From Verrucomicrobia bacterium GWF2_51_19 (lineage in GTDB: Bacteria; Verrucomicrobiota; Verrucomicrobiia; Opitutales; UBA12508): a stretch of 64,000 bases of DNA. The stretch covers positions 5,608-69,607 of the forward strand of contig MIDP01000011.1 of the NCBI GenBank assembly GCA_001831095.1, written 5' to 3'. This document shows positions 4,468 through 49,048 of the stretch, piece by piece. Position 1 is the first letter of the stretch. Each line of letters opens with the position of its first letter. Position numbers and translations under genes: made by a program. A model generated the notes under the pieces. The model ran no database searches and was not told the origin of the DNA. It saw only the letters and a program-made list of their open reading frames with translations.

Positions 4468-4774
4468 CCTCAATCATTAGCGAAGAACAAGTCATATCGG
4501 TTGAGTTGCCTGTATAGTTGAGGCCTGCATTGTCATGAGTGTTCTAATTTAAATTTCACCAAATGGTGAGAACGCTCTCCTGAATTTTTAATCGGTCCGC
4601 GTCTGCAAGACGCCCTCGATGCGCCGTTAGAGAGCTCGGCGGGTCTATGGAGCCTTTTGTGGCGCACTCCTTCTGCATCCGAGAGCGGCTATGGCTGTAA
4701 AAACAAGAGCTTAAAATGAATTTGTCGCTGTTTTAGATAAAATACTCGGTTATAGTATTTTTATAAAAAGTCAA
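4468..4774 (-). ncRNA. candidate outward transcript H1 (leader X, long tail)
   Basis: Minus-strand TTGACT at 4774..4769, a 14-nt spacer, then TATAAC at 4754..4749. Followed by the conserved core, hairpin GCGTCT-gca-AGACGC (4599-4613), TCACC-attt-GGTGA, and the terminus. Transcription is inferred, not shown. Confidence 0.3.
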
Positions 4775-4971
4775 GCTTTTTCGTAAAAATTTTCGGCGTG
4801 GCGTAATCTTTCATAAGCTTTAAATAATCAACAAGCATAAGCCTCGATTTCCGCATACTGTGCCGCAATTAGACTGTCGGCGTAGCCCAACTGCGTTGAT
4901 GCTGCGTTTGGAGTTGATGTACAGTTACTTTAGGCTCCGAGTACGGCCTCGACGATTTATTACGAAAAAGC

Positions 4972-5195
4972 TTGACTTTTTATTTAAAAAATATAACAGA
5001 CATTAAATATAAAAATTAATATATAAAACTCAACATCAACCTCCATTATTTTTTTAAAATCAGAAAAAGCCGCTCACGTAGTGCAGAAGGAGTGCGCCAC
5101 AAAAGGCTCCATGGACCCGCCGAGCTCTCTAACGGCGCATCCAGGGCGCATCGGAAAACCGATGCGCGATCATAAAATTTCGCTAATGATTGAGG
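4972..5195 (+). ncRNA. candidate outward transcript H2 (leader Y, short tail)
   Basis: TTGACT 4972-4977, 14 nt, TATAAC 4992-4997. Followed by the core and the perfect hairpin GCGCATCGG-aaaa-CCGATGCGC (5146-5167), 13 nt before the terminus. Confidence 0.3.
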
Positions 5196-7650: not shown

Positions 7651-7659
7651 AAGAATACT

Positions 7660-9598: not shown

Positions 9599-9604
9599 AA
9601 ACCT

Positions 9605-9826
9605 ATGCAAAATGCCGTGAAAGCTCGTTTCGCGCTCCGCCTCCTGGCTCACGTACCATCGTACGCTACGCCAGCTCGTGCTCGCGCAAAGCCAAGCTTT
9701 GACGTCATTTTTCACAGGTTTTTATGGATCAATGATTTACATTTTATTAGAAAGGTAAGGCCGTTTGAAAATGTACATCAAAACTCGAGTGACGATAACG
9801 CAGCAGACATTTTACAAAGGTCTTAA
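9605..9826 (+). repeat. R2-linker-(degenerate R1) composite repeat (C2)
   Basis: Starts 6 nt after the fliF stop and is homologous to C1. Stem CTGGC...GCCAG replaces the CTGCC...GGCAG of C1. The track ORF 9605..9826 is its translation. Confidence 0.9.
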
Positions 9827-15950: not shown

Positions 15951-16751
15951 ATGAGTACAGATGTATCAAATCTAGTGGCCTCGAAAACGCCTTATCAGAC
16001 GGGTTCGTCAACGAGTTACCAGCCGTCAACGAGCTCCACGATCACGCCGTATCAGGCCGTCAGCAAGGAACAAACGCTCACTTTTCAACAACAGATGGAT
16101 AAAATCGCCCTAGAAAAGGCATCACTGCTGGATAAGTTGATCAGTGATGGCAAGGGCATAGACAGCTCTTCTACGATGACAGACCAGCAAAGGGCAGAAT
16201 TTTGGAGTAAGCTGGAACAACAGTACAAAGAGCTCGATTGGAAGTATCAAACCGAGCAGGCGAAGATTCAGTCTGCACAGCAAGTCAACACGAGCAAAAT
16301 GACTCGGACGGAAAAAGAAAAGCTAGACTCGCTCTACACGACCGAGGCCGACCGTCAACTGAACATGCAAGACTTTCTCACGTTGATGACAAAACAGCTG
16401 CAATATCAAAACCCGATGGAGCCAATGAGCGACCTATCGTTCATGTCGCAGATGAGCAGCTTTACGTCTCTCGAACAGATGAAAGCGTTGTCGACATCGA
16501 TGGCCTCATTCACCAAGACGCAAAATCAGGCGTCCGCGCAGAGCTATTTGGGCAAGGAGGTCGTCATCAACGCGACTGATAAGCTCTATGCGGGCAGGAC
16601 AGAGGTGGGCATCGTCGAAGAAGTCAGACAATCGAACGCCGGTGATACTTACGTCGTCGTCAACGGCAAGCAATTCCTCTTTAAGGACATTGTCACCGTC
16701 CGCACACCCGTGGCTGCAACGACGGACACAACCACGGAAACCATTGTTTAA
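15951..16751 (+). CDS. flgD: flagellar hook capping/assembly protein FlgD
   Basis: FlgD motif QDFLTLMTKQLQYQNPMEPMSDLSFMSQMSSFTSLEQM. Confidence 0.9.
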   Translation: MSTDVSNLVASKTPYQTGSSTSYQPSTSSTITPYQAVSKEQTLTFQQQMDKIALEKASLLDKLISDGKGIDSSSTMTDQQRAEFWSKLEQQYKELDWKYQTEQAKIQSAQQVNTSKMTRTEKEKLDSLYTTEADRQLNMQDFLTLMTKQLQYQNPMEPMSDLSFMSQMSSFTSLEQMKALSTSMASFTKTQNQASAQSYLGKEVVINATDKLYAGRTEVGIVEEVRQSNAGDTYVVVNGKQFLFKDIVTVRTPVAATTDTTTETIV

Positions 16752-16779
16752 TACTAAAATTTCAAAACATCAAAGATAA

Positions 16780-16900
16780 AGAGCGATTCAAAATGCGCCT
16801 ATAGCAAGGCCCGAGGAATGAGGGCGACGGGAGCCTACTTAAGGTAGGTGACCTAGCCCGAACGACGAGAACGCCGCTAGAGGCCATTTTCAATCGCTCT
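16780..16900. repeat. R1 quasi-palindromic repeat (solo copy between flgD and flgE)
   Basis: Sequence agagcgattcaaaatgcgcctatagcaaggcccgagga...gccgctagaggccattttcaatcgctct. The outer arms are complementary. Confidence 0.9.
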
Positions 16901-16913
16901 TCAGAAAGGGAAT

Positions 16914-22271: not shown

Positions 22272-22648
22272 CCATACGTATTTTATACGCCGCGAAGAAT
22301 GGTGTCATGACGGATGATACAGAGACTGCCGCGAAGAATGGTGTCATGACGGATGATACAGAGACTGCCGCGAAGAATGGTGTCGAGAGTGATGAATTAT
22401 TGGATGCGATCTACTGTCAGAATCAGAATAACGATGATTATAATGACGCACAAAATATCAGCGAAGAAGTGATTAATACGATGAGGCGCTTGATGGAAAC
22501 GGAAACAGAAATAAAAGCAATTACACTTAAGGGTTGGTCCTGGGATAAAATGAACCCTATCTCACCTCTCACACTTTTCTGCGAAGACTTTAAAGACTTT
22601 GAATTCGGAAACGATTCTGACTTCTATATTATTCCAAAAAACACTTAA
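22187..22648 (+). CDS. acidic hypothetical protein with AAKNGVMTDDTET repeats (possibly the frame-shifted C-terminus of the ankyrin gene)
   Basis: 153-aa ORF. Its frame is open from 22145 and overlaps the ankyrin ORF by 85 nt in another frame. Followed by a good terminator at 22678-22710. Confidence 0.55.
   Translation: MCKEAAEELRITLDEKESVANPDSTISLAIRILYAAKNGVMTDDTETAAKNGVMTDDTETAAKNGVESDELLDAIYCQNQNNDDYNDAQNISEEVINTMRRLMETETEIKAITLKGWSWDKMNPISPLTLFCEDFKDFEFGNDSDFYIIPKNT
22289..22394 (+). repeat. 39-bp tandem repeat (2.7 units)
   Basis: gccgcgaagaatggtgtcatgacggatgatacagagact appears twice exactly (22289-22327 and 22328-22366), plus a diverged partial third unit. Confidence 0.95.
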
Positions 22649-22818: not shown

Positions 22819-24792
22819 ATGGCCAGGCCAGTAAAGATTCAAGAGACGATGCAGCAATTGCGAGAGGCGATTGCGCATCACGATCGTCTGTATTACAAGG
22901 ACGCTCGACCGGAGATTTCCGATTTCGAATACGATTGTCTGAAGAACGAGCTGGCGTACATGGAAAAGCAATACCAAGAGACCGCGCCCCAGGCGGATTC
23001 CGTTGGCGACGACCGTATTGATGGCTTTCATACTCGCAAGCACCGGAGTCCCATGTTGAGCCTCACAAATTCTTACGATCGAGCGGATGTGTTTGATTTT
23101 GACAGACGATTGCGTGAAGACGGGCTCGCGTTTAGCTATGTCGTGGAGCCGAAGATTGACGGTGTCGCTGTCAGCCTGTGTTATGAACAGGGCCAATTGA
23201 TGCATGCCTTGACGCGCGGTAACGGTGTTGAAGGGGACGATATCACGCAAAATATACACACGATTGCTGGCATTCCAAAAAACTTGATGGCGCCCTTTCC
23301 GGATTTTGTGGAGGTCCGTGGAGAGGTTTACATGACCTTGAAGGACTTTGAGGCGGTCAACGTCAAGCGCGACGAAGATGGCATGCCGCCTTATGCCAAC
23401 CCCCGCAATCTCGCCGCTGGCAGCATCAAGTTGCTCGACTCGCGCGAGACTCGTGAACGTCCGTTGAGGGCCGTTTTTTACTCCGTTGGCGACGACGGGA
23501 ATGGCTTTAAGAGTGAATCGGAGATCTTGGAGGCCCTACATGCCTGGCAGTTACCCGTTTTGGAGCGCTACTGGGTTGCGAACACAATTGAAGCCGCCTG
23601 GGCACACATTGAAGAGCTCGACAAGCTCCGCCATTCTTTTTTGTACAACACCGATGGCGCCGTCCTCAAGGTGAACGAACGCGCCCTGCAGCGTCAATGG
23701 GGACATACTGCCAAAGCGCCCCGGTTTGCCATTGCCTACAAATTTGAGCCTGAGCAAGTCGAGACGCTCTTGGAAAAGATCCACATACAGGTCGGCCGAA
23801 CGGGCGTATTGACTCCCGTTGCGCAGTTGTCACCCGTCTTTCTATCTGGAACAACGGTAGCGCGGGCAACGCTTCACAACGCCGAAGAGATGGCGCGCAA
23901 AGACATCCGTGAGGGCGACACGGTTCTCATTGAAAAAGCTGGCGAAATCATTCCGGCCGTCCTCTCCGTCAACCTCGACAAGCGTCCCAAACTCTCCCAG
24001 CCCTTTGCGTTTCCAAAAACATGCCCGGCCTGCGGTGGCACCGTTAGCCGCGTCGATGGCGAAGTTGCGTGGCGCTGTCTCAACGTCAATTGTCCACCGC
24101 AAATCCGCCGCCGCCTGCTGCACTTTGCCTCGCGCTCAGCCATGGACGTCGAGCACCTCGGCGAAAGTGTCATCGATCAGCTCGTCTCACGCGGCTTTCT
24201 CAAAACGCTTGCTGACATCTACAGCCTGACGTCTACGCAATTGTCGCAGCTCGACGGATTTCGTGAAAAGTCTATCCAAAACCTCCTTGATGCCATCGAG
24301 CGCAGCAAGCACAATGAGCTCTGGCGCCTTCTACATGGCCTTGGAATTCAGTACGTCGGCGCGCAAACAGCCAAGGACCTCGCTTACGCGTTTTCCCTAA
24401 AAGAGCTCACAACGGCCACCGTCGAGGCCCTTTTGCGCGTTAATGGCGTCGGAGAAAAGGTCGCCAACAGCGTCTATCGCTTTTTTCACAACACAGACAA
24501 CCTGGCTCTGCTACAGCAATGGATCGATGCGGGCCTCGATCCACAACGCCCACAACGCAGCTCTGGAGCCCTCACTGGCAAAAAGTTCGTCCTCACAGGA
24601 ACGCTGCCAACGCTCTCCCGTGAGGCCGCCAAAGAGCTGATTGAAAAGGCCGGTGGCGTCGTCTCTGCTTCTCTCAGCGCGAAGACCGACTTTCTCCTCC
24701 TCGGCGACAACCCCGGCTCTAAGCTCGCTCAGGCACAAAAGCTCCAGGTCCCCATTCTTTCCGAGGCAGACCTTTTGAGGCTACTTATTTGA
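22819..24792 (+). CDS. ligA: NAD-dependent DNA ligase LigA
   Basis: 657 aa with the adenylation motif VEPKIDGVAVSL, a Zn-finger (CPACGGTVSRVDGEVAWRCLNVNCP), HhH motifs and a C-terminal BRCT domain (GKKFVLTGTL). Confidence 0.96.
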   Translation: MARPVKIQETMQQLREAIAHHDRLYYKDARPEISDFEYDCLKNELAYMEKQYQETAPQADSVGDDRIDGFHTRKHRSPMLSLTNSYDRADVFDFDRRLREDGLAFSYVVEPKIDGVAVSLCYEQGQLMHALTRGNGVEGDDITQNIHTIAGIPKNLMAPFPDFVEVRGEVYMTLKDFEAVNVKRDEDGMPPYANPRNLAAGSIKLLDSRETRERPLRAVFYSVGDDGNGFKSESEILEALHAWQLPVLERYWVANTIEAAWAHIEELDKLRHSFLYNTDGAVLKVNERALQRQWGHTAKAPRFAIAYKFEPEQVETLLEKIHIQVGRTGVLTPVAQLSPVFLSGTTVARATLHNAEEMARKDIREGDTVLIEKAGEIIPAVLSVNLDKRPKLSQPFAFPKTCPACGGTVSRVDGEVAWRCLNVNCPPQIRRRLLHFASRSAMDVEHLGESVIDQLVSRGFLKTLADIYSLTSTQLSQLDGFREKSIQNLLDAIERSKHNELWRLLHGLGIQYVGAQTAKDLAYAFSLKELTTATVEALLRVNGVGEKVANSVYRFFHNTDNLALLQQWIDAGLDPQRPQRSSGALTGKKFVLTGTLPTLSREAAKELIEKAGGVVSASLSAKTDFLLLGDNPGSKLAQAQKLQVPILSEADLLRLLI

Positions 24793-24804
24793 GGGGAGTG
24801 TGGC

Positions 24805-25189
24805 CCGCAATCATTAGCGACCGCAAAAGTTCACCCGCTGAAAATCAAAAATCATCTGATGTTAACTGGAATTGATGTTTTTTCTGACGGATTATTGGTC
24901 CGCGGTGAATGCGTCCGCAGACATACTAACTGCCTTTAGCTCTGCGTGTGGCAACACGCTCTGGATGCGTATACAGAAGTACTAACTCCTTCCAACTCTC
25001 TGCGTGTGGCAACACGCCCTCGATGCGCCGTTAGAGAGCTCGGCGGGTCTATGGAGCTGTTTGTGGCGCACTCCTTATGCCTCCGAGGGCGGCTTTGGTT
25101 GATTTTTTAAAATATCTGATATTGATTGATATTTAAAATATTCATTTTTTGTATTTAATATCCAGTATAGTTTTTAAATAAAAAGTCAA
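24805..25189 (-). ncRNA. candidate outward transcript H3 (leader Y, two S hairpin modules, tail type Z)
   Basis: Minus-strand TTGACT 25189..25184, 14 nt, TATACT 25169..25164. Followed by the core and two GCGTGT-ggca-ACACGC hairpins (around 24949 and 25004). Transcription is inferred. Confidence 0.3.
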
Positions 25190-25217
25190 GCTTTTTCGCA
25201 ATAAATCGTCGAGGCTA

Positions 25218-25486
25218 CCTCGATCCTTAGCGAAATTTCATTACCGCGCATCGGTTTTCCGATGCTCCCTTGAATGCGCCATTACAAGTACTAACTCCAT
25301 CCAACTCTGCGTGTGTCAACACGCCCTCGATGCGCCGTTAGAGAGCTCGGCGGGTCTATGGAGCCTTTTGTGGCGCACTCCTTCTGCTCTCGGAGGCGGC
25401 TTTGGCTGTAAAAACAAGATATTGGAATGGATTTATCGCTGTTTTAGAAAAAAATCTTCAAATATAGTATTTTTATAAAAAGTCAA
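25218..25486 (-). ncRNA. candidate outward transcript H4 (leader X, short tail)
   Basis: Minus-strand TTGACT 25486..25481, 14 nt, TATATT 25466..25461. Followed by the core, GCGTGT-gtca-ACACGC, and GCGCATCGG-tttt-CCGATGCtC. Confidence 0.3.
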
Positions 25487-25569
25487 GCTTTTTCGTAAAA
25501 ATTTTCGGCGCAGCAGAAGCTCTTTTAATATTTACATAATCAAAAAACAATCTCGATTCACTCATTCTA

Positions 25570-26037
25570 GGCTGCAACGAGCTTATGCGCTGCAACTCGA
25601 CGGCTTCGTTTTCGCACGAAGGGTTGCAATGAGCTTATGCGCTGCAACTCGACGGCTTTGATGCCGCATTCTGGGCTGCAACGAGCTTATGTGCTGCAAC
25701 TCGACGGCTTTGATGCCGCATTCTGGGCTGCAACGAGCTTATGTGCTGCAACTCGACGGCTTCGTTTCCGCACGAAGGGTTGCAATGAGCTTATGCGCTG
25801 CAACTCGACGGCTTTGTTTTCGCACGAAGGGTTGCAATGAGCTTATGCGCTGCAACTCGACGGCTTTGTTTCCGCAGTCTGGGCTGCAACGAGCTTATGT
25901 GCTGCAACTCGACGGCTTCGTTTTCGCACGAATGGTTGCAATGAGCTTATGCGCTGCAACTCGACGGCTTCGTTTTCGCACGAATGGTTGCAATGAGCTT
26001 ATGCGCTGCAACTCGACGGCTTTGATGAAGCGTTGGG
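25570..26037. repeat. 52-bp tandem repeat array, 9 units
   Basis: The units start exactly at 25570, 25622, 25674, 25726, 25778, 25830, 25882, 25934 and 25986. The conserved part is gcaaYgagcttatgYgctgcaactcgacggctt. The ~19-nt variable part occurs in only a few recurring variants (cgttttcgcacgaagggtt and tgatgccgcattctgggct types). Confidence 0.97.
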
Positions 26038-26097
26038 CGTTATATAGCTGTGTATGTCGGCACTGAATCTAGCCTCGACGATTTATTGCGAAAAAGC

Positions 26098-26453
26098 TTG
26101 ACTTTTTGTTTAAAAACTATATTAGACATTAAATACAAAAATTTGAATATTTAAAATCCGATATTTTTAAAAAAATCAGCTAAAGCCGCTCTCGAACACA
26201 GAAAGAGTGCGACAACAAGCGGCTCCCTAGACCCGCCGAGCTCTCTAACGGCGCATCCAGGGCGTGTTGTCACACGCAGAGCTTGAGGGAGTTAGTACTT
26301 CTGGAGACGCATTCACCGCAAACCGGTTAAATTTTTAGGAAAGCGTTTTCACTCTTTTGGTGAAATTTACATTAGAGCACACATGACCATGCAGGCGTCA
26401 ATTAGACAGGCAACGCAACTGATATGACTTATTTTTTTGCTAATGATTGAGGG
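26098..26453 (+). ncRNA. candidate outward transcript H5 (leader Y, long tail)
   Basis: TTGACT 26098-26103, 14 nt, TATATT 26118-26123. Followed by the core, GCGTGT-tgtc-ACACGC, the TCACC/GGTGA hairpin and the terminus. Confidence 0.3.
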
Positions 26454-27630
26454 AAATCACCCTCGTTGTCGAGTATTGCTTCCACCCTGGAAGAGTGGAG
26501 TCGTGCGGCGAAGGTTGCGGATTGAGCCAAAAGGCGTGAGAAACACAATCTTTGAAATGGGCTGGCGTTTCCGGCGGAGGAATCGGCGGGAATTTTGTCC
26601 AAGCGAGTTGAAAGAGTGTATTGGGAAGGACGGCAAAAAAAGTTTTGTAAAAATTCCAACTGTCTTGCTGCGTGAAAGCTTGATGCCAGCCAACTCGTCG
26701 ACACCAATGATTAGCCAGGTAGCATTCGGTCTGGGGAAGAAGGCGGCTGGCATCAAGGAGTATTGCCTCTGGAGCTGGTTCAATGCGATTATCGGTGTCC
26801 AATGGGAGAGCCCAATAGGCCCGGAGCGTATCGAGCGGCCCAAACATGACGAAATCAGAGGGATGATAGAGGAGGTACTTCATAGTGTACGCCTCTGGAA
26901 TGAAGAGCCGTGGGCGATCGGAATATTGATTGAGGGCGTCAAAGAGGTCGGTAAAGAGCGATGGACTCAGCGGAATGAGGTCCGTGCGGACCTTCAACGC
27001 ATGCGACCACCCCAAGGTTTGTGCCTTTTCAAACCCCGCGTGCGTGCTGACAATTTGCAGGTTACGATTGCCCCTGCCAGGCGATGGTTTTCGAGACAGA
27101 ACGATGTCGTCGATCCAGGCGTCTGCAGCCTTAAGTATGTCACAGTCAGCATCTTCCCAGGTTGACAAAATCAACTGTATCCCAGCATAGGTCGTTTTCA
27201 AGTAACGCAACAACAACAACGTTTCTTGCTCAACGGATCCCTGCATAACGATACCACAGTCGGCCGACACCGTTTGAGCCTTTGGGTTTTCCAGCTGAAA
27301 ATACAGGGCGTCGGTCAGCGCTAAATCGACCAAATGGGCGGCATTCAACCTCGGAAATCGCTCTGGAATCGCCCTTTCGATTGCCCCAAGCGCGCCAGAA
27401 AAAATCACTACAACCGTGCCATCACCTTCCGCATACAGTCGTTCGGGAGAACTCACCTCGATAGCACCAACACAGCTGTTCCAAAGCGTCGCATCACTGT
27501 CGACACAATACGCAAGGGGGACATTTACGTCCCCCTTCAGTGCTTCAAATAAAGACCCGACGCCCCAGCCGACAAACTTTTTAGCCGTCTTCAGCGTGGA
27601 TGCTAGCTGTTGGCCTTTTTTACTTTTCAA
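26440..27630 (-). CDS. hypothetical protein, possibly WavE-like LPS/glycan biosynthesis protein
   Basis: 396-aa ORF. The central/C-terminal region (ILSTWEDAD, GNRNLQIVSTHAG, ALKVRTD, YHPSDFVMFG) resembles my recollection of the WavE family (tentative). The last 4 codons and the TAG stop lie inside the A2 terminal repeat. Confidence 0.6.
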   Translation of the reverse strand: MKSKKGQQLASTLKTAKKFVGWGVGSLFEALKGDVNVPLAYCVDSDATLWNSCVGAIEVSSPERLYAEGDGTVVVIFSGALGAIERAIPERFPRLNAAHLVDLALTDALYFQLENPKAQTVSADCGIVMQGSVEQETLLLLRYLKTTYAGIQLILSTWEDADCDILKAADAWIDDIVLSRKPSPGRGNRNLQIVSTHAGFEKAQTLGWSHALKVRTDLIPLSPSLFTDLFDALNQYSDRPRLFIPEAYTMKYLLYHPSDFVMFGPLDTLRAYWALPLDTDNRIEPAPEAILLDASRLLPQTECYLANHWCRRVGWHQAFTQQDSWNFYKTFFAVLPNTLFQLAWTKFPPIPPPETPAHFKDCVSHAFWLNPQPSPHDSTLPGWKQYSTTRVISLNH

Positions 27631-27643
27631 AATGGCCTCTAAC

Positions 27644-28525
27644 TTATTTTTGAGCGGGCGCTTGAGTCGGTTGTTCCGCTGGCTTGGCAGGCTCGGCTAC
27701 GGGTGCAACGACATCCGCTGGCTTGGCAGGCTCGGCTACGGGTGCAACGACATCCGCTGGCTTAGCAACTTCCGCTGGCTTAGCAACTTCCGCTGGCTTA
27801 GCAACTTCCGCTGGCTTAGCAACTTCCGCTGGCTTAGCAACATCCGCTGGCTTAGCAGGCTCGACAACGGGTGTTGCTACCTCGGCGGGCTTCTCAGGAG
27901 CTGCTGTGGTTGGCGCTTCATCCTTAGTTTCAGGCGCAACCGCGATTATCGTTTCAGGCTGGTACAGCTTTTCTACCTCTGCAATGATTTTTATGGAATG
28001 CGTGCCGCAACCCACGATATATTCTTTGTTGCCATTTTTGACGAGCTTGACAAAGGACATTTTTTCGGTCGGTTTGTTGTCTCCAGGCTTGACCCACATG
28101 TACTTGACCCAAGCTTCACCACGGGCGTCCGTCTTAACCTTTCGATTCATCTCGGCGATAAAGTAATTGCCTTTGACGTCCCGAAGCTTGTTAGATTCAC
28201 GTCCTTCGAGCTTTGGCTTGACAGGATGCATGACAAAAAGACCGTCCGGGCTGTGAATCCAAATGTAGGTTCCACTGAAAATGAATGAGCTGTCTTTCCC
28301 TCTGAATTTCGGAAAAGCCGCCTCGCCCTCTTTCTCAATAAGGACCGCGCCCTCTCTCACCTTTTGCGTGATGAGGTCAGCGCTGATGGAGTCATTCTCT
28401 GTCGCGACGCATTTAGCTGAGCTCTCTTCTGCCAGATCATCGACATTGGTAGCCCTGAGGTAGGCAAAAGAGGTTAATCCGAGCAATATAGCTCCGGCCA
28501 ATAAATAAGGTCTGAATTTTTCCAT
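27644..28525 (-). CDS. secreted single-Cache-domain protein with repetitive PAEVAK / PADVVAPVAEPAK C-terminal tail
   Basis: 293 aa with a signal peptide (LLAGAILLGLTSFA). The Cache-like core is FIFSGTYIWIHSPDGLFVMHPVKPKLEGRESNKLRDVKGNYF...EAWVKYMWVKPG. The proline-rich tandem tail is encoded by the repeats at 27676-27861. Confidence 0.75.
   Translation of the reverse strand: MEKFRPYLLAGAILLGLTSFAYLRATNVDDLAEESSAKCVATENDSISADLITQKVREGAVLIEKEGEAAFPKFRGKDSSFIFSGTYIWIHSPDGLFVMHPVKPKLEGRESNKLRDVKGNYFIAEMNRKVKTDARGEAWVKYMWVKPGDNKPTEKMSFVKLVKNGNKEYIVGCGTHSIKIIAEVEKLYQPETIIAVAPETKDEAPTTAAPEKPAEVATPVVEPAKPADVAKPAEVAKPAEVAKPAEVAKPAEVAKPADVVAPVAEPAKPADVVAPVAEPAKPAEQPTQAPAQK
27676..27861. repeat. in-frame coding tandem repeats (2 x 39 bp, then about 6 x 18 bp)
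   Basis: ccgctggcttggcaggctcggctacgggtgcaacgacat appears twice (27676-27753), followed by ccgctggcttagcaactt units from 27754. Confidence 0.95.
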
Positions 28526-28608
28526 AGTACCAAAGGTTGTTGTCTTTCATTGTTAAATCGAAATACAGGAAAGTCAATACAAGAACGATTCACTTGAAAA
28601 CACTTCCA

Positions 28609-28929
28609 TCAATCATTAGCGACATTTTATTACCGCGCATCGGTTTTCCGATGCGCCCTGGATGCGCCTACAGAAGTACTAACTCCCTCCAACTCTGCGT
28701 GTAACAACACGCCCTGGATGTGCTTTGAATCTATCCGCCTACAGCTCTGCGTGTGGCAACACGCCCTGGATGCGCCGTTAGAGAGCTCGGCGGGTCTAGG
28801 GAGCCGTTGGTGGCGCACTCCTTCAGTCTCCGAGAGCGGATTTTGCTGTAAAAAAACAAGATATTTGAATGGATTTGTCGCTGTTTTTAGAAAGGAATCT
28901 TTAAATATAGTATTTTTATAAAAAGTCAA
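28609..28929 (-). ncRNA. candidate outward transcript H6 (leader X, two S modules, short tail)
   Basis: Minus-strand TTGACT 28929..28924, 14 nt, TATATT 28909..28904. Followed by the core, hairpins GCGTGT-ggca-ACACGC and GCGTGT-aaca-ACACGC, and GCGCATCGG-tttt-CCGATGCGC. Confidence 0.3.
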
Positions 28930-29105
28930 GCTTTTTCGTGTTTTTTTTGCGCTGCGGTATAACTGATCTTGGTGCGTAATTCACAAAGAATAATCTCGAT
29001 TCCCGCATACCAGGCCGCAGCCAACTTATACGCTATAGCTCGACGGACTTGATGCTGCATTGGGCGTTATATGCTATGTATGTCGGCCCTGAATTTAGCC
29101 TCGAC
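28609..29105. repeat. A-element copy A3, truncated (one half-unit plus central region, interrupted by A4)
   Basis: Left terminus tCAATCATTAGCGA at 28609-28622. The central region ends ...gaatttagcctcgac at 29105, directly abutting the terminus of A4. The Y-side half-unit is missing. Confidence 0.85.
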
Positions 29106-29468
29106 CTCAATCATTAGCGAAAAATAAGTCATATCGGTTGCGTTGCCTGTCTAATTGACGCCTGTATGGTCATGTGTGCTCTAATGTAAATTTCACCAAA
29201 TGGTGAAAACGCTTTCCTAAAAATTTAACCGGTTTGCGGTGAATGCGTCTCCAGAAGTACTAACTCCCTCAAGCTCTGCGTGTGACAACACGCCCTCGAT
29301 GCGCCGTTAGAGAGCTCGGCGAGTCTAGGGAGCTGTTGGTGTCGCACTCCTTCTGGGCCCGAAAGCGGCTTTGGATGATTTTAAAAAAAATATCGGATAT
29401 TGATGATGATTTTAAATATTCAAATTTTTGTATTTAATATCCAATATGGTTTTTAAACAAAAAGTCAA
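29106..29468 (-). ncRNA. candidate outward transcript H7 (leader Y, long tail)
   Basis: Minus-strand TTGACT 29468..29463, 14 nt, CATATT 29448..29443. Followed by the core, GCGTGT-gaca-ACACGC and the long tail. Confidence 0.3.
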
Positions 29469-29543
29469 GCTTTTTCGCAATAAATCGTCGAGGCTAGATT
29501 CAGTGCCGACATACACAGCTATATAACGCCCAACGCAGCATCA

Positions 29544-29795
29544 AAGCCGTCGAGTTGCAGCGCATAAGCTCATTGCAACCCTTCGTGCGAAAACGAAGCC
29601 GTCGAATTGCAGCGCATAAGCTGCATGTAGCCCAGAATGCGGCATCAAAGCCGTCGAATTGCAGCGCATAAGCTGCATGTAGCCCAGAATGCGGCATCAA
29701 AGCCGTCGAGTTGCAGCGCATAAGCTGCATGTAGCCCAGAATGCGGCATCAAAGCCGTCGAGTTGCAGCGCATAAGCTCGTTGCAGCCCAGAATG
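29544..29795. repeat. 52-bp tandem repeat array, about 5 units (inverted relative to 25570-26037)
   Basis: aagccgtcga(g/a)ttgcagcgcataagc recurs at 29544, 29596, 29648, 29700 and 29752, with exact 52-bp spacing. Three units carry a private variant ctgcatgtagcc. Confidence 0.95.
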
Positions 29796-29873
29796 CGGGA
29801 ATCGAGATTGTTTTTTTGGATTATGTAAATATTAAAAGAGCTTCTGCCGCGCCGAAAATTTTTACGAAAAAGC

Positions 29874-30146
29874 TTGACTTTTTATAAAAATACTATAATC
29901 GAGTATCTTATCTAAAAACAGCGATAAATCAATTCCAATATCTTGTTTTTACAGCCAAAGCCGCTCTCGAAGGCTGAAGGAGTGCGCCACAAAAGGCTCC
30001 CGAGACCCGCCGAGCTCTCTAACGGCGCATCGAGGGCGTGTTGACACACGCAGAGTTGGATGGAGTCAATACTTGTAATGAAATGATGCATCCAGTGCGC
30101 ATCGAAAAACCGATTCGCGGGCAAAAAATTTCGCTAATGATTGAGG
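29874..30146 (+). ncRNA. candidate outward transcript H8 (leader X, short tail)
   Basis: TTGACT 29874-29879, 14 nt, TATAAT 29894-29899. Followed by the core, GCGTGT-tgac-ACACGC, and a degenerate terminal hairpin. Confidence 0.3.
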
Positions 30147-30208
30147 GTGATTCAGCGTTGCTGATTTTTTTATTGACGGGCATGGCAAATAATTGAGTAA
30201 TGCTAAGT

Positions 30209-30358
30209 ATGAAGCAGTTCATTTTACTCTCGATAGCGTTGTTTGTGCTCGTCGGTTGTGCGACGACGGAACAAGAAAATACTGAGGCGCGCAAAAACTC
30301 GACGCTTCCATGGGCAAAGCCGGCGAGTTGGGAAGGCGGCCTCCCGGGACTGCGTTAA
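30209..30358 (+). CDS. small putative lipoprotein (49 aa)
   Basis: Found manually because it is below the track cutoff. Sequence MKQFILLSIALFVLVGCATTEQ..., with a signal peptide and lipobox LVGC. It ends 4 nt before the rsmE ATG. Confidence 0.45.
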   Translation: MKQFILLSIALFVLVGCATTEQENTEARKNSTLPWAKPASWEGGLPGLR

Positions 30359-31559: not shown

Positions 31560-31830
31560 AAAAGACCGCTCCAAAATGTCCTATAGCGTCGTTCGGGCTA
31601 AGTCACCTACCTCAAGTACGCTCCTGTCGCCCTCGCTCCTCGGGCCTTGCTATAGACGCATTTTGAAGCGGTCTTATGTCGTTGGTATTCTTTTAGTTAG
31701 ATTAAAGAATGGATACTACTGACTTTGCGCGAGTACGATTCGGCCGTAGTTGCATGGCTATCACTCCGGCTTCGCCAATTTTTTAAAGCGAAACACAAAA
31801 ATGCATGCATTTTTGCGCCGGTCTTTTGTT
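31560..31830 (-). repeat. R2-linker-R1 composite repeat (C3, R2 internally rearranged)
   Basis: On the minus strand it begins immediately after the stop (31829-31831) of ORF 31829..32389. The R1 part is 31562-31675. Confidence 0.85.
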
Positions 31831-32389: not shown

Positions 32390-32395
32390 CTAAAA

Positions 32396-32512
32396 AGACC
32401 GCTTCAAAAGGGTCTCCAGGCCCGAGGAGCGAGGGCGACAGGAGCGTACGTTGGTACGTGACTTAGCCCGAACGACGAGAACGCCGCTAGAGGCCATTTT
32501 CAAGCGGTCTTT
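32396..32512. repeat. R1 quasi-palindromic repeat (solo copy)
   Basis: Sequence aagaccgcttcaaaagggtctccaggcccgaggagcgagggcgacagg...gccgctagaggccattttcaagcggtctt. Lies in the divergent region upstream of lptD. Confidence 0.88.
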
Positions 32513-32560
32513 CTGATTTTGTGCTTTTCTTTCGCTATTTCTGAGTTATATTGAGCAGCG

Positions 32561-36390: not shown

Positions 36391-36575
36391 CGGCGTTCTT
36401 CCCGCAGGCGCTTTATGTCGTTGTTATTCATCTAGTTAGCTCAAAGACCTGGGCGAAATGGATGCAAAAATGTGGCTTTGCGCGAGTACGATCTGCCGTA
36501 GCGTACATAAACGTACGTGAGGCAGTCGACGGAGAGCGAAACGCATTTTGGCGCCATTTCACCCAGGTCTTTGGG
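36385..36575 (-). repeat. R2-linker-(R1 remnant) composite repeat (C4)
   Basis: On the minus strand it starts directly after the stop (36576-36578) of ORF 36576..37310. The R1 remnant tctagcggcgttct contains the nrnA stop codon. Confidence 0.85.
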
Positions 36576-37310: not shown

Positions 37311-37340
37311 CTTCTTATTGATTGTGGTTCAAATCACAAT

Positions 37341-37657
37341 AATCATTAGCGAAAAACAAGTCATACCGACCGCTTCCCATTTCTAATTGAGGCTTACATG
37401 GTCATGTGTGCTCTAATTTAAATTTCACCAAATGGTGAAATCGACTTCCTGAATTTTTAACCGGTCCGCGTCTGCAAGACTCCCTCGATGCGCCATTGGA
37501 GAGATTGACGGATCTATGGAGCCGTTTGTGGCGCACTCCTTCTGTATCCGAGAGCGGCTTTGGCTGATTTTTTAAAAAATATTGGATATTGATGAGGGTT
37601 TTAAATATTTATTTTTTTGTATTTAATGTCTAATATAGTTTTAAAACAAAAAGTCAA
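37341..37657 (-). ncRNA. candidate outward transcript H9 (leader Y, long tail, diverged core)
   Basis: Minus-strand TTGACT 37657..37652, 14 nt, TATATT 37637..37632. The core carries several substitutions, including a compensatory G-C to A-T change in the CGCCG/CGGCG stem. Confidence 0.3.
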
Positions 37658-37906
37658 GCTTTTTCGCAATAAATCAGAGATACCAGATTCATAGTCGAAA
37701 GGCACAATGCCATAACGCCCAACGCAGCATCAAAGTCGTCGAGTTGCAGCACATAAGCTCGTTGCAGCCCGGCGTGCGGAAACAAAGCTGTCTAGCTATA
37801 ACGCCCAAGCTAGTTGCAGCCTAGTACAAGAGAATCGAGATTGTTTTTGTGGATTATGTAAATATTAAAAGAGCTTTTGCCTCGCCGAAAATTTTTACGA
37901 AAAAGC

Positions 37907-38171
37907 TTGACTTTTTATAAAAATACTATAGTCGAGTATTTTATCTAAAAACAGCGACAAATCCATTTCAAGCTCTTGTTTTTACAGCCATAGCCGCTCT
38001 CGGATGTAGAAGGAGTGCGCCATCAAAGGCTTCCTAGACCCGCCGAGCTCTCTAACGGCGCATCGAGGGCGTGTTGACACACGCAGAGTTGGATGGAGTT
38101 GGTACTTGTAATGGCGCATTCAAGGGAGCATCGGAAAACCGATGCGCGGTAATAAAATTTCGCTAATGATT
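37907..38171 (+). ncRNA. candidate outward transcript H10 (leader X, short tail)
   Basis: TTGACT 37907-37912, 14 nt, TATAGT 37927-37932. Followed by the core, GCGTGT-tgac-ACACGC, and the hairpin GaGCATCGG-aaaa-CCGATGCGC. Confidence 0.3.
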
Positions 38172-38415
38172 GTGGTTCAAATCACAACAATGCATTGAAT
38201 ATGGGGATTGTTTTTGTTGACAATAACGTTTCTATTTTTACTCTGCCTTCTTGAGTTAAGTGCTTGTGTCGCATCTTTTTACATTACATCTCCGCTCGCT
38301 ACCACTCTTTTCGTCCGAGTGTTGCACTTCATTGTTTAATTGGCGTGAGGTACATGCGGTACGTGACTTAGCTCGAACGACGAGAGCGCCGCTACCAATT
38401 TTGCCAATGTCTTTT

Positions 38416-40914: not shown

Positions 40915-41883
40915 CTAATACATTGTCACTTCGGACTTCTGCATGAGGAAGCGGCGGATTTCGGGAATGGTGTCTTCAACGGCGTCGTCGAGGACGTAGT
41001 GGCCAGCGTACTCGTAAATAATTGTTTTGGCGTTTGGGAAAAAGGACTGCCAGCGCTTGAGAAAGACCTTCGTAAAGCAGAAGTCGAGCCCTCCCCAGAG
41101 AATGAGAATGGACTTGTGTTGCAGCAGCCAGAGCGTCTCTTCGATCTTTGTGATCGTGTCGTAGCTGCGGTGGTTTGGAGTGAGCGGGATGTCTTTAATA
41201 AAATTCCAGATGGCGACGCGGTTGCGCCAGCTGTCGTAGGGAAACAGGTAACCGCGCTTTTCTTCGGCTGTCAGGCCTCGTGGAGCTGCCATGGATGTTG
41301 CCATTCTCGCAAACAGATTGAATCCGCGGACCAAGATTGGACCCAAAATGGGCGTTTTGCACAACAGAATGCGGAAAGGAATGGCCGTCGAGTGAAAAGC
41401 AGCCGTGTTGAGAATGACGAGGCTCTTCAACCGAGCTGGCCAACGTTGCGCGATGGCCATGCCGATAGCCCCACCCCAATCGTGGACGACGAGGTGGTAG
41501 TGCTTGATGTTCAGCGATTCTAAAAGCTCTATCGTGCGTTCGATGTGCTGATCCAGCGTGTAGAGGTCCTCTTGTGGCTTGTCGGAAAGGCCGCAGCCGA
41601 GGTGGTCCGGGACGATGCAGCGGTAATATTTTTTGAGCTCTTTAACGAGATTGCGGTAATAAAACGACCACGTCGGGTTTCCATGAAGCATGACAACGAC
41701 CTCGCCATGGCCTTCATCCAAGTAATGGAGGCGATAGCCAGTGCCTTTAAGCCTGTAGTAATGACTCTCGAAAGACCATTGCAAAATGTCACACGGCGTT
41801 CTCGTCGTTCGGGCTAAGTCACGTACCAACGTACGCTCCTGTCGCCCTCGCTTCTCGGGCCTTGCTATAGAGCCATTTTGCAA
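40915..41883 (-). CDS. alpha/beta hydrolase, haloalkane-dehalogenase-like (OleB-like)
   Basis: MLHGNPTWSFYYRNL and VVHDWGGAIGMA (Asp nucleophile). The first ~37 codons of the track ORF are the translation of repeat C5, so the true start may be TTG 41784. Confidence 0.8.
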   Translation of the reverse strand: MQNGSIARPEKRGRQERTLVRDLARTTRTPCDILQWSFESHYYRLKGTGYRLHYLDEGHGEVVVMLHGNPTWSFYYRNLVKELKKYYRCIVPDHLGCGLSDKPQEDLYTLDQHIERTIELLESLNIKHYHLVVHDWGGAIGMAIAQRWPARLKSLVILNTAAFHSTAIPFRILLCKTPILGPILVRGFNLFARMATSMAAPRGLTAEEKRGYLFPYDSWRNRVAIWNFIKDIPLTPNHRSYDTITKIEETLWLLQHKSILILWGGLDFCFTKVFLKRWQSFFPNAKTIIYEYAGHYVLDDAVEDTIPEIRRFLMQKSEVTMY

Positions 41884-42032
41884 CGGTCTTTCCTTTCGTG
41901 TAAGTTGTTAATGCGCAAAAGACCTATGATAAATGTTCTCAAAGTTTGACTTTGCGCGAACACAACCTGGCGTAGCGTACATAGACGTACTTGAGACAGT
42001 CGTCGCAGAGAAAAACGAGCTTTCACGGCATT
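41772..42032 (-). repeat. R2-linker-R1 composite repeat (C5)
   Basis: On the minus strand R2 begins inside the last 5 codons of the OleA-like gene and supplies its TGA (42025..42023). The R1 part is 41772-41895. Confidence 0.9.
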
Positions 42033-43879: not shown

Positions 43880-44088
43880 GCCCACCGCGCTCTCGTCGTT
43901 CGGGCCTTGCCGTTCATTGTTTCAACAGTCTTACTTCTTGTAAGTTGTTCATTTGCAAAGACCGATGTAAAAATGGATGTAAAAATGTGGCTTTGCGCGA
44001 GTACGATCTGCCGTAGCGTACATAGAGGTACGTGAGGCAGACGGCGCAGCGCGAAACGCATTTTTGCGCCATTTTACATTGGTCTTAT
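43880..44088 (-). repeat. R2-linker-(R1 remnant) composite repeat (C6)
   Basis: On the minus strand it starts directly after the fabZ stop (44088-44090). The R1 part has an internal deletion. Confidence 0.85.
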
Positions 44089-44525
44089 TATTCGTTATTA
44101 ACTAGAGCCAGTGCAAAGTCAACGGTCAAAACAGTCTTTTTATCTTTTTCGATGCGTCCAGAGAGAAAGAAAAACTGTCCAACCGTCTCCTTGAGCTCGA
44201 CAGACATCGTGACGGTTTCGCCCGGGAGAACTCTGCGCTTGAATCGACTGTCCTGAATGCGAGACAAAATGGGTGTTTTGCCAGACAAACCATCGCCTTG
44301 AGCCTTCAAGCGCTCAACGAGCAGGATGGCTGCCGTCTGAAACACGCTCTCGCACATGAGGACGCCGGGAAGGATCGGATTTTCTGGATAGTGGCCGCGG
44401 AAAAAGTCCTCATCTGCCCTCCAGGTCTTCTCGGTGAGAATCGTTGTTTCGGTCATCTCCAGAACCCGATCGACAAAGAGAAATGGCTCTCTATGGGGGA
44501 TGTATGCTTTTATATCAAGACTCAT
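44088..44525 (-). CDS. fabZ: 3-hydroxyacyl-ACP dehydratase FabZ
   Basis: IPHREPFLFVDRV and FFRGHYPENPILPGVLMCES. Confidence 0.92.
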   Translation of the reverse strand: MSLDIKAYIPHREPFLFVDRVLEMTETTILTEKTWRADEDFFRGHYPENPILPGVLMCESVFQTAAILLVERLKAQGDGLSGKTPILSRIQDSRFKRRVLPGETVTMSVELKETVGQFFFLSGRIEKDKKTVLTVDFALALVNNE

Positions 44526-47388: not shown

Positions 47389-47481
47389 CCTCAATCATTA
47401 GCGAAATTTTATTACTGCGCATCGGTTTTCCGATGTGCTCTGGAATTAAACCTCACACTCCGCGTGTGACAACACCCCCTG
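47389..47481 (-). repeat. A-element terminal fragment
   Basis: CCTCAATCATTAGCGA (47389-47404), GCGCATCGG-tttt-CCGATGtGC, and a degenerate S hairpin. Homology then breaks into an R2 remnant. Confidence 0.85.
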
Positions 47482-48679: not shown

Positions 48680-48704
48680 ACAGCTAAAAAGTTACCATCT
48701 TTTT

Positions 48705-48878
48705 TGAAAATGCAAAGCAAAATCATCTGATGTTAAATTGTATTGATGTTTTTTCACAGCCAAAGCCGCTCTCGGATGTAGAAGGAGTGCGCCACAAACA
48801 GCTCCATAGACCCGCCGAGCTCTTCCGGGGCGCATCGGAAAACCGATGCGCAGTAATAAAATTTCGTTAAGGATTGAG
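48705..48878 (+). repeat. A-element fragment (Z segment, core, short tail, degenerate terminus)
   Basis: Sequence aaaatcatctgatgttaaattgtattgatgtttttt, then the core (ccgctctcggatgtagaaggagtgcgccac...), then GCGCATCGG-aaaa-CCGATGCGC, then tcgTtaAGgattgag. There is no TTGACT box. Confidence 0.85.
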
Positions 48879-49048
48879 TGTAATATGGTTCTTGAAGCAT
48901 TCCGCATTGCCTTTTAGAAAAGATTGGCCAATATTTGCTTTTGTTTGGAAGGAATATCTTTTCAAATAAACGCAAAATAAATGTGGGCAGGGCCTGTTTG
49001 TCATGCCGAGTGGGTCAAGGGGCGAGAAACCCACAGTTAAGGAGATTT

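Follow-up and report, generated by a model that had tools for sequence, protein, structure and literature searches.

What is a repeat that occurs at seven loci of one chromosomal stretch, is bounded by inverted repeats and holds no gene of its own? The question is raised by 64 kb of DNA (the window, meaning the whole stretch analysed) from the uncultured groundwater MAG 'Verrucomicrobia bacterium GWF2_51_19', for which an earlier note had offered a non-autonomous transposon, a multicopy RNA locus, or both. We propose that these repeats, here called A-elements, very probably belong to one family of non-autonomous ('passenger') DNA transposons in this uncultured groundwater Verrucomicrobium.

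The A-element family and its anatomy

The seven loci that the earlier note had assigned to one inverted-repeat-bounded family of ~5 kb were recovered with small boundary shifts, as judged from an arm HMM and from counts of termini and boxes. The HMM gave 10 full matches and one partial match over the window, all at these loci and none elsewhere in it. The window contains 11 arms, 12 termini, 10 exact 19-nt boxes and two 52-nt tandem arrays, A-element sequence amounting to 5020 nt (7.8% of the window). Boundaries were redrawn with the 16-bp termini, with shifts of 1 nt in places (Table 1). Further copies lie on ~30 other contigs of the same population, and the census that had been suggested comes to 49 distinct arms for the window and these contigs together. 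The copies are intergenic and differ from each other by 5–20%; no pair among them is >95% identical, which gives no sign of recent activity. Independent assemblies (ENA, JGI, NCBI MAG, Logan) recover the same copies with the same flanks, so the copies are not assembly artefacts. The family is without a match in Rfam, plasmids, phages or the literature, and it is one not described before that lacks a gene of its own.

The only ORF of at least 120 aa inside any copy is a translation of tandem repeats (25689–26066), and no conserved reading frame was seen in the arms or centre when these, small ORFs included, were read by eye, in agreement with the earlier view that the copies hold no credible ORF. 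No transposase or autonomous copy with A-element termini was found in the window or in ~0.45 Mb of related contigs, and 205 kb of the host genome contain no other repeat of at least 450 bp as a candidate parent. That the window has no transposase, as had been stated, holds for most of its larger ORFs, those at ~9.8–12.9 kb being left out; within the same scope, the genes examined (neighbours of the copies and other window genes) are ordinary chromosomal genes.

Intact A-elements (n = 14) measure 726–1235 bp, and all 14 have one long and one short end together with one X and one Y leader. The tail types, hairpin modules and leaders were all found as first described. The long tail (~150 nt) carries the hairpin TTTCACC-AAAT-GGTGAAA, and the short tail (~45 nt) carries the G+C hairpin GCGCATCGG-TTTT-CCGATGCGC. 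The hairpin module, ~55 nt in length and ending in CCTSGATGCGCC, is present 0–2 times per arm in the window and 0–3 times at other loci; its stems are kept while its loops vary, and one stem variant is compensated (GCGTGT..ACACGC versus GCGTCT..AGACGC). The cores form an inverted pair of ~55 nt each (~110 nt with the adjoining common sequence), and the block between them is asymmetric, consisting of the Y leader, the 19-nt box, a unique Y flank, n copies of a 52-nt minisatellite, a unique X flank, the box and the X leader. Only the terminus, hairpin modules, core and box are common to both arms. The 'foldback mirror' of the earlier note therefore stands for these four parts, but not for the tails (long/short) and leaders (X/Y), which in every element are of two different types.

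The leaders are conserved far less well than the core and the box. The box, AAAAAGTCAAGCTTTTT(CG), occurs 10 times in the window, each time exact over 19 nt; its divergence per site is 1.9% versus 5.2% for the termini, and it is exact in 36 of 47 arms versus 23 of 47 for the termini. That the box is better conserved than the termini is puzzling.

Table 1. A-element loci in the window, with their parts and flanks (coordinates of the window; (-), reverse orientation).
Feature	Coordinates	Strand	Parts and flanks
A1, complete element, 728 bp	4468..5195	.	TIR 4468-4483; long-tail hairpins 4554-4571, 4599-4613; core 4618-4672; Y leader; box 4765-4783; centre 4784-4962; box 4963-4981 (-); X leader; core 5087-5141 (-); short-tail hairpin 5146-5167; TIR 5180-5195 (-); flanking 8-mers ATTTTTGC 4460-4467 and ATTTTTGA 5196-5203, 7/8 identical
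Solo X-type arm, third tail type; abuts next element	24805..25217	+	TIR 24805-24820 (CCGCAATCATTAGCGA); modules 24944-24959, 25002-25017; core 25022-25076; X leader; box 25180-25198; final letters ...CGTCGAGGCTA
Complete element, 1235 bp	25218..26452	.	TIR 25218-25233; short-tail hairpin 25246-25267; module 25309-25324; core 25329-25383; Y leader; box 25477-25495; centre with 52-nt array 25573-26022 (8.7 copies); box 26089-26107 (-); X leader; core 26202-26257 (-); module 26262-26277; long tail; TIR 26437-26452 (-); no target-site duplication
Truncated element (Y arm and part of centre), X arm missing; abuts A4	28607..29104	+	TIR 28607-28622; short-tail hairpin 28635-28656; modules 28697-28712, 28749-28764; core 28769-28823; Y leader; box 28920-28938; centre up to ...TAGCCTCGAC
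A4, complete element, 1042 bp, centre inverted relative to A1	29105..30146	.	TIR 29105-29120; long tail, hairpin 29191-29208; module 29278-29293; core 29298-29352; X leader; box 29459-29477; centre with 52-nt array 29538-29798 (5 copies); box 29865-29883 (-); Y leader; core 29977-30031 (-); module 30036-30051; short-tail hairpin 30097-30118; TIR 30131-30146 (-)
A5, complete element, 839 bp	37337..38175	.	Degenerate TIR 37337-37352; long-tail hairpins 37423-37440, 37468-37482; core 37487-37541; X leader; box 37648-37666; centre; box 37898-37916 (-); Y leader; core 38010-38064 (-); module 38069-38084; short-tail hairpin 38126-38147; TIR 38160-38175 (-); direct repeat TTCAAATCA at 37328-37336 and 38176-38184
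Fragment F1	47389..47481	+	TIR 47389-47404; short-tail hairpin 47417-47438; decayed module 47462-47477
Alanine dehydrogenase gene	47558-48679		Between F1 and F2, which face each other
Fragment F2	48701..48879	-	Partial leader-like segment (also in third tail type); post-core; core 48782-48836, fused to short-tail hairpin 48830-48851; decayed TIR 48864-48879

Probable insertion of the copies and recombination between them

The terminal inverted repeat of 16 bp, CCTCAATCATTAGCGA, is found at both ends of the 14 intact elements and on many fragments. With up to two mismatches, the terminus CTCAATCATTAGCGA has 11 matches in the window against 0.12 expected, a number reached by none of 100 shuffles, and a twelfth end, degenerate, lies at 37337. 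Target-site duplications of 8–9 bp were found at 12 of 22 paired ends. The flanking bases are at least 8/10 identical at 8 of the 22, compared with 0.4% of mismatched partner pairs taken as a control, and when an offset of 1 nt is allowed, a direct repeat of 8–11 bp is present at 12. Mismatches in these repeats occur at the outermost positions only, which fits a 16-bp TIR with an 8–9 bp duplication. About half of the paired ends have no duplication, among them those of the compound copies in 24805–30146 and of each of the four mini-derivatives.

Two copies lie inside other short repeats, the uninterrupted sister repeats of which represent paralogous empty sites. On contig L009, a copy splits a short terminator-like repeat and has TTTTATTC(C) on both sides; the same repeat is unbroken (...TTTTATTCC...) on L012, L039 and L044 and at 55906–55978 of the window. 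On L017, a copy splits another repeat with duplication of CTTTCTAG, and this repeat is intact at 7592–7642 of the window and on L038, L016 and L041. The target-site duplications and the two paralogous empty sites back the non-autonomous transposon among the options first offered. No allelic empty site was seen between assemblies, and presence/absence polymorphism, which the earlier note had named as a possible check on mobility, did not appear: occupancy is the same in all independent assemblies. The sole differing contig, L002, was probably joined chimerically at a repeat copy, because its context changes within a box and then matches contig L037.

Relative to the unlike ends, the centre takes its two orientations in a ratio of 7:7 among the 14 intact elements (long with X, 7; long with Y, 7), which points to recombination within the inverted ~55–110-nt cores. 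Core identity stays at 0.89–0.90 across the tail and leader types, as it should if exchange takes place in the core. There are also deletion derivatives of 43–184 bp, solo TIRs and solo arms. The reshuffling of modules between copies, already described in the earlier note, is supported.

We propose the following mechanism. A trans-acting transposase, probably a DDE enzyme, would bind the termini, and insertion by a staggered cut of 8–9 bp would generate the target-site duplications. After or between transpositions, the copies may undergo recombination, each internally or with another copy, in the core and module sequence that they have in common, as the pattern of combinations suggests. Such recombination would flip the central block relative to the ends, change the module number, yield solo arms as well as truncated and abutting copies, and erase the duplications at about half of the sites, and slippage could alter the number of 52-nt repeats. 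The near-invariant box and the conserved core are most simply regarded as putative cis-acting protein-binding sites for propagation, for example sites of the transposase or of a host bending protein.

Other readings of the box, the cores and the copies

The better-kept box counts against the transposon reading, because sequence needed for transposition only should not outlast the termini. Could the A-element be more than a passive passenger? The box and inverted cores would then be functional parts of a mobile cassette, which might be a flippable transposable switch or promoter-terminator unit, or the template of an element-encoded RNA for its own mobilisation. Post-insertion selection on the copies would account for a box that has kept its sequence better than the termini; we nevertheless regard this extension as unlikely.

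Another possibility is that each arm is a small-RNA gene made up of a promoter in or close to the box, then the AT-rich leader, core and hairpin modules, and finally the tail hairpin as terminator, so that the element spreads RNA genes or the RNA helps the element move. The box contains TTGACT, and each leader type has TATA(A/T)T 14 nt downstream of it; read outward, the tail hairpins resemble terminators, and the preserved stems of the modules, their compensated variant and the strong conservation of core and box over the leaders would all suit such genes. However, there is no Rfam match at gathering or E-value thresholds, in keeping with the earlier note, which did not recognise the core as tRNA, tmRNA, RNase P, SRP or 6S. 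The fold of an arm is no better than that of shuffled sequence, whichever direction is taken (z = -0.70 and -1.28), and RNAalifold gives only -10 to -15 kcal/mol for 46 distinct cores, with no covariation (covariance term positive) and just a single short stem. Base changes in the core stem, like those in the short-tail hairpin, lack compensation, the TTGACT-N14-TATAAT spacing is outside the sigma-70 range with no promoter found at the box by a promoter scan, and no covariation links the hypervariable post-core segments of an element's two arms (p = 0.09). Among the tests of structure, the compensated module variant alone gave a positive sign. There is no sign of an RNA gene encoded by the A-elements; the proposed multicopy RNA locus is left without support, and we consider it quite unlikely that the arms are such genes.

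It is also very unlikely that the copies serve the host as mobile regulatory or invertible cassettes, in which the central block between the inverted cores would be a recombinase-flipped switch (inverton), or the box a selected host-factor or promoter site, with the copies acting as promoters, terminators or nucleoid-protein sites. The 7:7 orientation of the centre, the conservation of the box above the termini with all 10 window boxes exact, and the presence of copies in every type of intergenic space would accord with this. Yet both orientations are seen only between different copies. Independent assemblies show the same arrangement at four sites (A1, A5, the F1/F2 pair and the A2–A4 interval), orientation having been compared base by base only at A1 and gene spacing being unchanged at the others. 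The cores within one element are no more alike than those of different elements (identity 0.81 versus 0.83), which makes it unlikely that flipping or gene conversion is frequent. None of the copies has a recombinase gene next to it, and because both leaders carry the same box and TATA-like motif, inversion would not obviously alter the output.

Host palindromic mosaics of the REP/BIME kind, propagated by a REP-associated tyrosine transposase or simply through recombination, and not by a TIR transposase of the cut- or copy-and-paste type, would likewise be modular, hairpin-rich and intergenic; this genome is rich in other REP-like families, and many A-element copies are without duplications. 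This explanation is highly improbable given the 16-bp TIRs, the 8–9 bp duplications and the precise interruption of other repeats, none of them REP/BIME traits, together with units 10–30 times longer than REPs (0.7–1.2 kb) and no IS200/IS605-like gene seen among the genes examined. Finally, repeats made or multiplied by metagenome mis-assembly or binning can be practically dismissed: contigs of other assemblies do stop inside A-elements and L002 does change context, but the agreement of independent assemblies and copies that differ by 5–20%, each with individual flanking duplications, speak against it.

As a transposon family, the A-elements are a well-documented case from a phylum (Verrucomicrobia) and a habitat (aquifer groundwater) with almost none described. 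They make up ~8% of 64 kb of chromosome, every short-read assembly of the organism is broken by them, and their copies are a natural record of how copies recombine. The box conserved above the termini is a testable oddity, being either a required cis site for a transposase or host factor or a sign that copies are useful to the cell. With the consensus, MAGs of the lineage can be masked or scaffolded and the missing transposase can be sought.

Comparison with known systems

Invertible DNA segments (Mu G / P1 C and fimS-type invertons) are bounded by inverted repeats of 10–35 nt and occur in both orientations. The A-elements resemble them in having a segment between inverted repeats in both orientations (between copies), but differ in their ~55–110-nt repeats, in having neither an adjacent recombinase nor a gene or recognisable promoter to switch, and in showing no orientation polymorphism at the locus compared (A1). 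The eukaryotic foldback (FB) transposons have long inverted arms made almost wholly of tandem subrepeats around a variable centre, many copies being ORF-less and arm recombination frequent. Inverted arms with internal repeats around a variable centre and no ORF are likewise found in A-elements, whose arms, however, have only terminus, modules, core and box in common, differ in tail and leader, and reside in a bacterial host.

The BOX elements of Streptococcus pneumoniae (boxA, boxB × n, boxC) and the enterobacterial BIMEs (REP plus linker motifs) are hairpin-rich, intergenic and built from few modules of variable number and order; REP/BIME units are short (20–40 bp) palindromes without TIRs or duplications and are associated with RAYT genes. 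A-elements are modular, hairpin-rich, intergenic mosaics too, but with defined TIRs, 8–9 bp duplications, precise interruption of other repeats and much longer modules, and there is no sequence similarity between them as judged from Rfam, plasmid and phage searches only. Correia/NEMIS elements of Neisseria are counted among the bacterial MITEs and have the general features of that group.

Bacterial MITEs (e.g. MITEAba12 of Acinetobacter), like the A-elements, have no transposase gene, TIRs of ~16 bp, duplications of fixed length and many intergenic copies, and mobilisation in trans by a co-resident parent IS is presumed (PMC6382973). Their size is usually ~50–600 bp (PMC6382973), and in the strict sense of the term intact A-elements (726–1235 bp) are too large, only the 43–184 bp deletion derivatives being in range. 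Further differences are that no parent IS was identified in the sequence searched, that the ends are unlike and the centre lies in both orientations, and that the conserved interior is elaborate, with hairpin modules, inverted cores, an invariant box and a minisatellite. The A-element is too large and too structured for a classic MITE, and with its unlike ends, either-way centre, variable hairpin modules and minisatellite, its architecture widens the picture of what a bacterial MITE can be.

Occurrence of the A family

The A-elements, modular repeats bounded by inverted repeats, are real and constitute a new family. The 15-nt terminus CTCAATCATTAGCGA was matched 11 times in the window at no more than two mismatches, against 0.12 expected, a count reached by none of 100 shuffles. 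The box AAAAAGTCAAGCTTTTT occurs 10 times in the window, all 10 being exact across 19 nt (AAAAAGTCAAGCTTTTTCG). An arm profile spanning core, leader and box gave 10 full matches and one partial match in the window, none of them outside the seven loci recognised in the earlier note, so that both these loci and the modular family are borne out; tails, hairpins, modules, cores and leaders match the description given there. In total the family takes up 5020 nt (7.8%) of the window; two copies have tandem arrays of 52-nt units at their centres, 8.7 and 5 units long.

The DNA ligase gene (LigA) directly upstream of the 24805–30146 interval is identical to OHE74051.1 of GWF2_51_19, a groundwater MAG assigned by one paper to 'order 1' of the phylum (PMC6920513). 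The same sequence was found in ENA, JGI, NCBI-MAG and Logan assemblies, several contigs of which end within the first A-element. Scanning metagenome contigs for a pattern made of both conserved core ends gave 37 loci, about 30 of which are real copies, all from three JGI datasets and apparently one population; window and metagenome loci combined yield 49 distinct arms. Viral contigs gave no match to the core pattern, and a genome-collection scan with a 21-nt core gave a single match at chance level, in a coding region of Chloroflexia. Nothing similar to whole copies was found by BLASTN in plasmid and phage collections, and a full-text literature search for the terminus and box sequences returned one match, which was unrelated.

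Coordinates of A copies and other repeats (L numbers, loci on other metagenome contigs, mostly of the same population)
Feature	Window	Other contigs	Remark
A1	4468-5195
A2	in 24805-26452
A4	29105-30146
A5	37337-38175
F1, F2	47389-47481, 48701-48879
A arm and second terminus		L056:863-1110	~6 kb upstream of window start; arm ends at terminus 1069-1083; second, outward-facing terminus 12 nt on (1096)
Relative of module and core		L008:7380-7437; L044:300-420	divergent
REP-like family	957-1082, 7360-7655, 9587-9773, 16741-16906, 31560-31712, 32394-32513, 36443-36572, 41770-42039, 43900-44096		intergenic
Terminator-like short repeat	55826-55978	L012:3768-3866; L039:3875-3933; L044:553-611
B repeat (GTTTCTATTTTTA..CATTGTTTAATTGGCG)	38200-38340	L002:12806-12935 (= L037)	~125 bp; window copy adjoins A5
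Coding tandem repeats	27675-27857, 22289-22384		in frame

Termini, target duplications and interrupted sites

For 22 non-redundant pairs of facing termini, the 12 bases outside each terminus were compared. At least 8 of 10 flanking bases are identical in 8 of the 22 pairs, as opposed to 0.4% of 2000 mismatched partner pairs, and a direct repeat of 8–11 bp is present in 12 when a one-base offset is allowed. A5 carries TTCAAATCA on either flank, and A1 has ATTTTTGC on one side and ATTTTTGA on the other. Just outside the 15-mer, the left-hand base is nearly always C and the right-hand base G irrespective of the flank, and mismatches between flank copies are confined to these outermost positions. 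The simplest reading would therefore be a 16-bp terminal inverted repeat (TIR), CCTCAATCATTAGCGA, with a target duplication of 8 bp, sometimes 9 bp.

Empty sites were reconstructed in silico and then searched for, and two copies supplied the classical proof of insertion. The L009 copy sits within a short terminator-like repeat and is flanked on each side by TTTTATTC(C); the repeat is uninterrupted (...TTTTATTCC-ATAAAA...) in L012, L039, L044 and at window positions 55906–55978. The L017 copy sits within a second repeat family, where CTTTCTAG is duplicated, and its target repeat is intact at window positions 7592–7642 and in L038, L016 and L041. Jointly, the TIRs, the fixed-length duplications and the precise interruption of other sequences mark the A-elements as a DNA transposon that moves or moved, in support of one of the options of the earlier note. 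From the same pattern we infer an enzyme of the DDE class.

Presence/absence polymorphism was sought between assemblies at A1, A5, the F1/F2 fragments and the Cache/WavE interval; none was found, occupancy being identical throughout. L002 was discounted as evidence of strain polymorphism: this contig (ENA ERZ27254744 k141_638636; L002:12389 onward) is identical to the window until it reaches the first arm's box, within which it changes over to a different copy, matching the separate L037 contig from there on. It is probably a chimera, joined by the assembler through the repeat; in other assemblies the contigs just stop within the elements.

Several other repeats share this genome. At least one REP-like family, distinct from the A family, has members of 100–280 bp at 75–90% identity, each having an extended, imperfect palindrome (such as CGCGCTCCGTCG...GTACGCTACGGCAGCTCGTACTCGCG) as well as the stretch ...CGAACGACGAGAACGCCGCTAGAGG...; it is into one of these members that the L017 copy is inserted. 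The terminator-like repeat, AAAAGTGTTTT..GGGAAGGTCCGGAAACCCC-TTTTATTCCATAAAA-GGGTTTCC, lies in many intergenic regions, forms an inverted pair in the window and provided the paralogous empty site with which the L009 copy was compared. In L002/L037 the B repeat is lodged in an A-element's long tail, flanked by TTTAAAAAA and TTTTTAAAT, and hence looks like a second small mobile element inserted into an A copy. As to coding tandem repeats, the Cache-domain protein gene has 39-nt and 18-nt units (2.4 and 5.8 copies), and the ORF downstream of the ankyrin-repeat gene has 2.5 copies of a 39-nt unit, 100% identical.

Architecture, recombination and coding content

In each of the 14 intact elements one tail is long and the other short, and one leader is of type X and the other of type Y. 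In arriving at this count, five automatic tail calls (L017 right, L038 left and right, A5 left, and A2 right, which has no match to the long-tail hairpin) and two leader calls (L017 right, A2 right) were amended by eye. The mirror structure described earlier thus holds only in so far as the two inverted arms are partly alike; with heterotypic tails and leaders the element is not a mirror. The central block is rigid and asymmetric, running Y leader, box, Y flank, 52-nt units, X flank, box and X leader, and the long end is joined to its X side in seven elements and to its Y side in the other seven. The two orientation states appear to differ by an inverted centre or, what amounts to the same, by exchanged ends.

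Core identity is 0.89–0.90 whether the arms compared have like or unlike tails, or like or unlike leaders, which indicates that exchange happens in the shared core and module sequence. The post-core segment, on the other hand, tracks leader type, with an identity of 0.82 for like and 0.69 for unlike leaders. Cores from one element resemble each other no more closely than cores from different elements do (0.81 versus 0.83), concerted evolution of the pair was not found, and the hypervariable post-core segment showed no significant covariation from arm to arm (p = 0.09). At A1, the sole site compared base by base, orientation is equal in two assemblies. Given this and the cores being no more alike, flipping is an evolutionary event rather than a visible switch.

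The same core/module recombination would account for the module number of 0–3, solo arms (24805–25217), truncated copies (28607–29104), abutting copies, solo termini and deletion derivatives down to 43 bp, and would erase the duplications at about half of the sites. Module number and the 7:7 ratio of long-X to long-Y elements agree with the module reshuffling proposed before. Copies abut end to end at L056, window 29104/29105, L032:5570/5580 and L039:7929/7950. The 24805–30146 interval, whose outer ends have no duplication, is accordingly two compound clusters on either side of two ordinary genes.

Two further arrangements were seen. An alanine dehydrogenase gene (47558–48679, minus strand) lies between two decayed inverted A ends (47389–48879), both of the short-tail type, with an inverted repeat 5 nt longer (ATTAC/GTAAT) and no duplication; the arrangement looks like a composite but may be two unrelated remnants. 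The relative of the hairpin module and core in L008 and L044 retains the outer parts GATGCGCC ... GTGGCGCACTCCTT around a different 36-nt interior (CCATAAAGAGGTCAACGGAATCAAGAGATGCCATCT), has no box or terminus close by, and adjoins a 58-nt tandem duplication.

The A-element is non-autonomous. The sole ORF of at least 120 aa within any copy is a translation of tandem repeats, in line with the view that no copy holds a credible ORF. The genes beside or between copies encode GDP-mannose dehydratase, a DUF4143 ATPase, LigA, a WavE-like protein, a Cache-domain protein, RsmE, alanine dehydrogenase, DnaB, BamA, Nuo subunits, a Mur ligase and others. Pfam searches of the genes adjoining or between termini and of other window genes, the larger ORFs at ~9.8–12.9 kb excepted, gave housekeeping matches bar one HNH protein beside a solo terminus, and no transposase, as had been stated for the window. 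In 205 kb of the GWF2_51_19 genome the A-elements are the only repeats of at least 450 bp, and no parent element with a transposase was found in the ~0.45 Mb sampled. The HNH protein is a 329-aa ORF (L039:313-1373) with a weak HNH-endonuclease match (E 9e-6); it directly adjoins a solo terminus at 1359 (GTCAATCATTAGCGA), whose inner sequence resembles none of the A tails.

Constraint on the arms and comparison with known elements

Within leader types, nucleotide diversity is 0.014–0.020 in the box, 0.08–0.12 in the core, 0.14–0.22 in the leaders and 0.21–0.26 in the post-core segment. Among 47 arms ascertained by the core alone, the 19-nt box is exact in 36 (1.9% divergence per site) and the 16-nt terminus in 23 (5.2%). 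Some of this conservation reflects constraint on lineages that kept transposing; the box nonetheless outlives the termini, which a site needed for transposition alone should not do. Each arm has two to five occurrences of the motif CCTSGATGCGCC, and A-elements show a ten-fold enrichment of ATGCGC, a pattern suggestive of subterminal protein-binding repeats. We regard box and core as candidate cis-acting protein sites, for the transposase or for a DNA-bending host factor.

That they are instead a promoter, a switch or an RNA is improbable, even for the three together. The promoter scan gave no match at the box, whose TTGACT is separated by 14 nt from the closest TATAAT-like hexamer, too short a spacing for a sigma-70 promoter. 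The multicopy RNA locus considered in the earlier note is without support. No Rfam family was matched in the whole window at the gathering threshold, only two chance-level matches appeared on 24700–30250 at E ≤ 5 (STnc150, with 23 bits for a cut-off of 60, and snoU36a), and no tRNA or tmRNA was found in the window, consistent with the core not having been recognised as a known RNA. Relative to dinucleotide shuffles, a whole arm folds with z = −0.70 outward and −1.28 inward. For 46 distinct cores RNAalifold gave −10 and −15 kcal/mol on the two strands with one 6–7 bp stem (TGCGCC/GGCGCA), its covariance term was positive and no covariation was seen; substitutions in this stem and in the short-tail hairpin are uncompensated, and per-copy folds of the post-core segment gave nothing convincing. 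Selection at the level of the single strand or the palindrome does seem to act on the small module hairpin: its stem is kept with a variable loop (GGCA, GTCA, GACA, AACA), and another type of stem carries a compensated change (GCGTGT..ACACGC versus GCGTCT..AGACGC), albeit as a single event. An integron attC (GTTAGAG mismatches GTTRRRY and the partner site is absent), an iteron-type origin (poor fit), a type III antitoxin repeat (no toxin gene), CRISPR (no unique spacers) and an IHF site at the box (only 7 of 9 specified positions) were all dropped.

As a DNA transposon, the A-element resembles bacterial MITEs in being non-coding, with TIRs and duplications and many intergenic copies, presumably mobilised in trans; however, it measures 0.73–1.24 kb whereas MITEs are defined at ~50–600 bp (PMC6382973), and it has no known parent IS. 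In its modularity it is reminiscent of the BOX elements of pneumococci and the BIMEs of enterobacteria, which lack the TIRs and duplications of A-elements. Eukaryotic foldback elements likewise have two inverted arms, but those of the A-element are alike only in part. Invertible segments share the reversible centre, yet A-elements have neither a recombinase nor single-locus polymorphism. Duplications of 8–9 bp fit several IS families, among them IS256, ISL3, IS66, IS6, IS1595 and IS1, and assignment of A-elements to any one of them would take the transposase itself. The A-element is best classed as a non-autonomous transposon of unusual size and elaborate modularity. Its class of mechanism is familiar; what stands out is its architecture, how densely it occurs in a phylum that is undersampled, and its over-conserved box.
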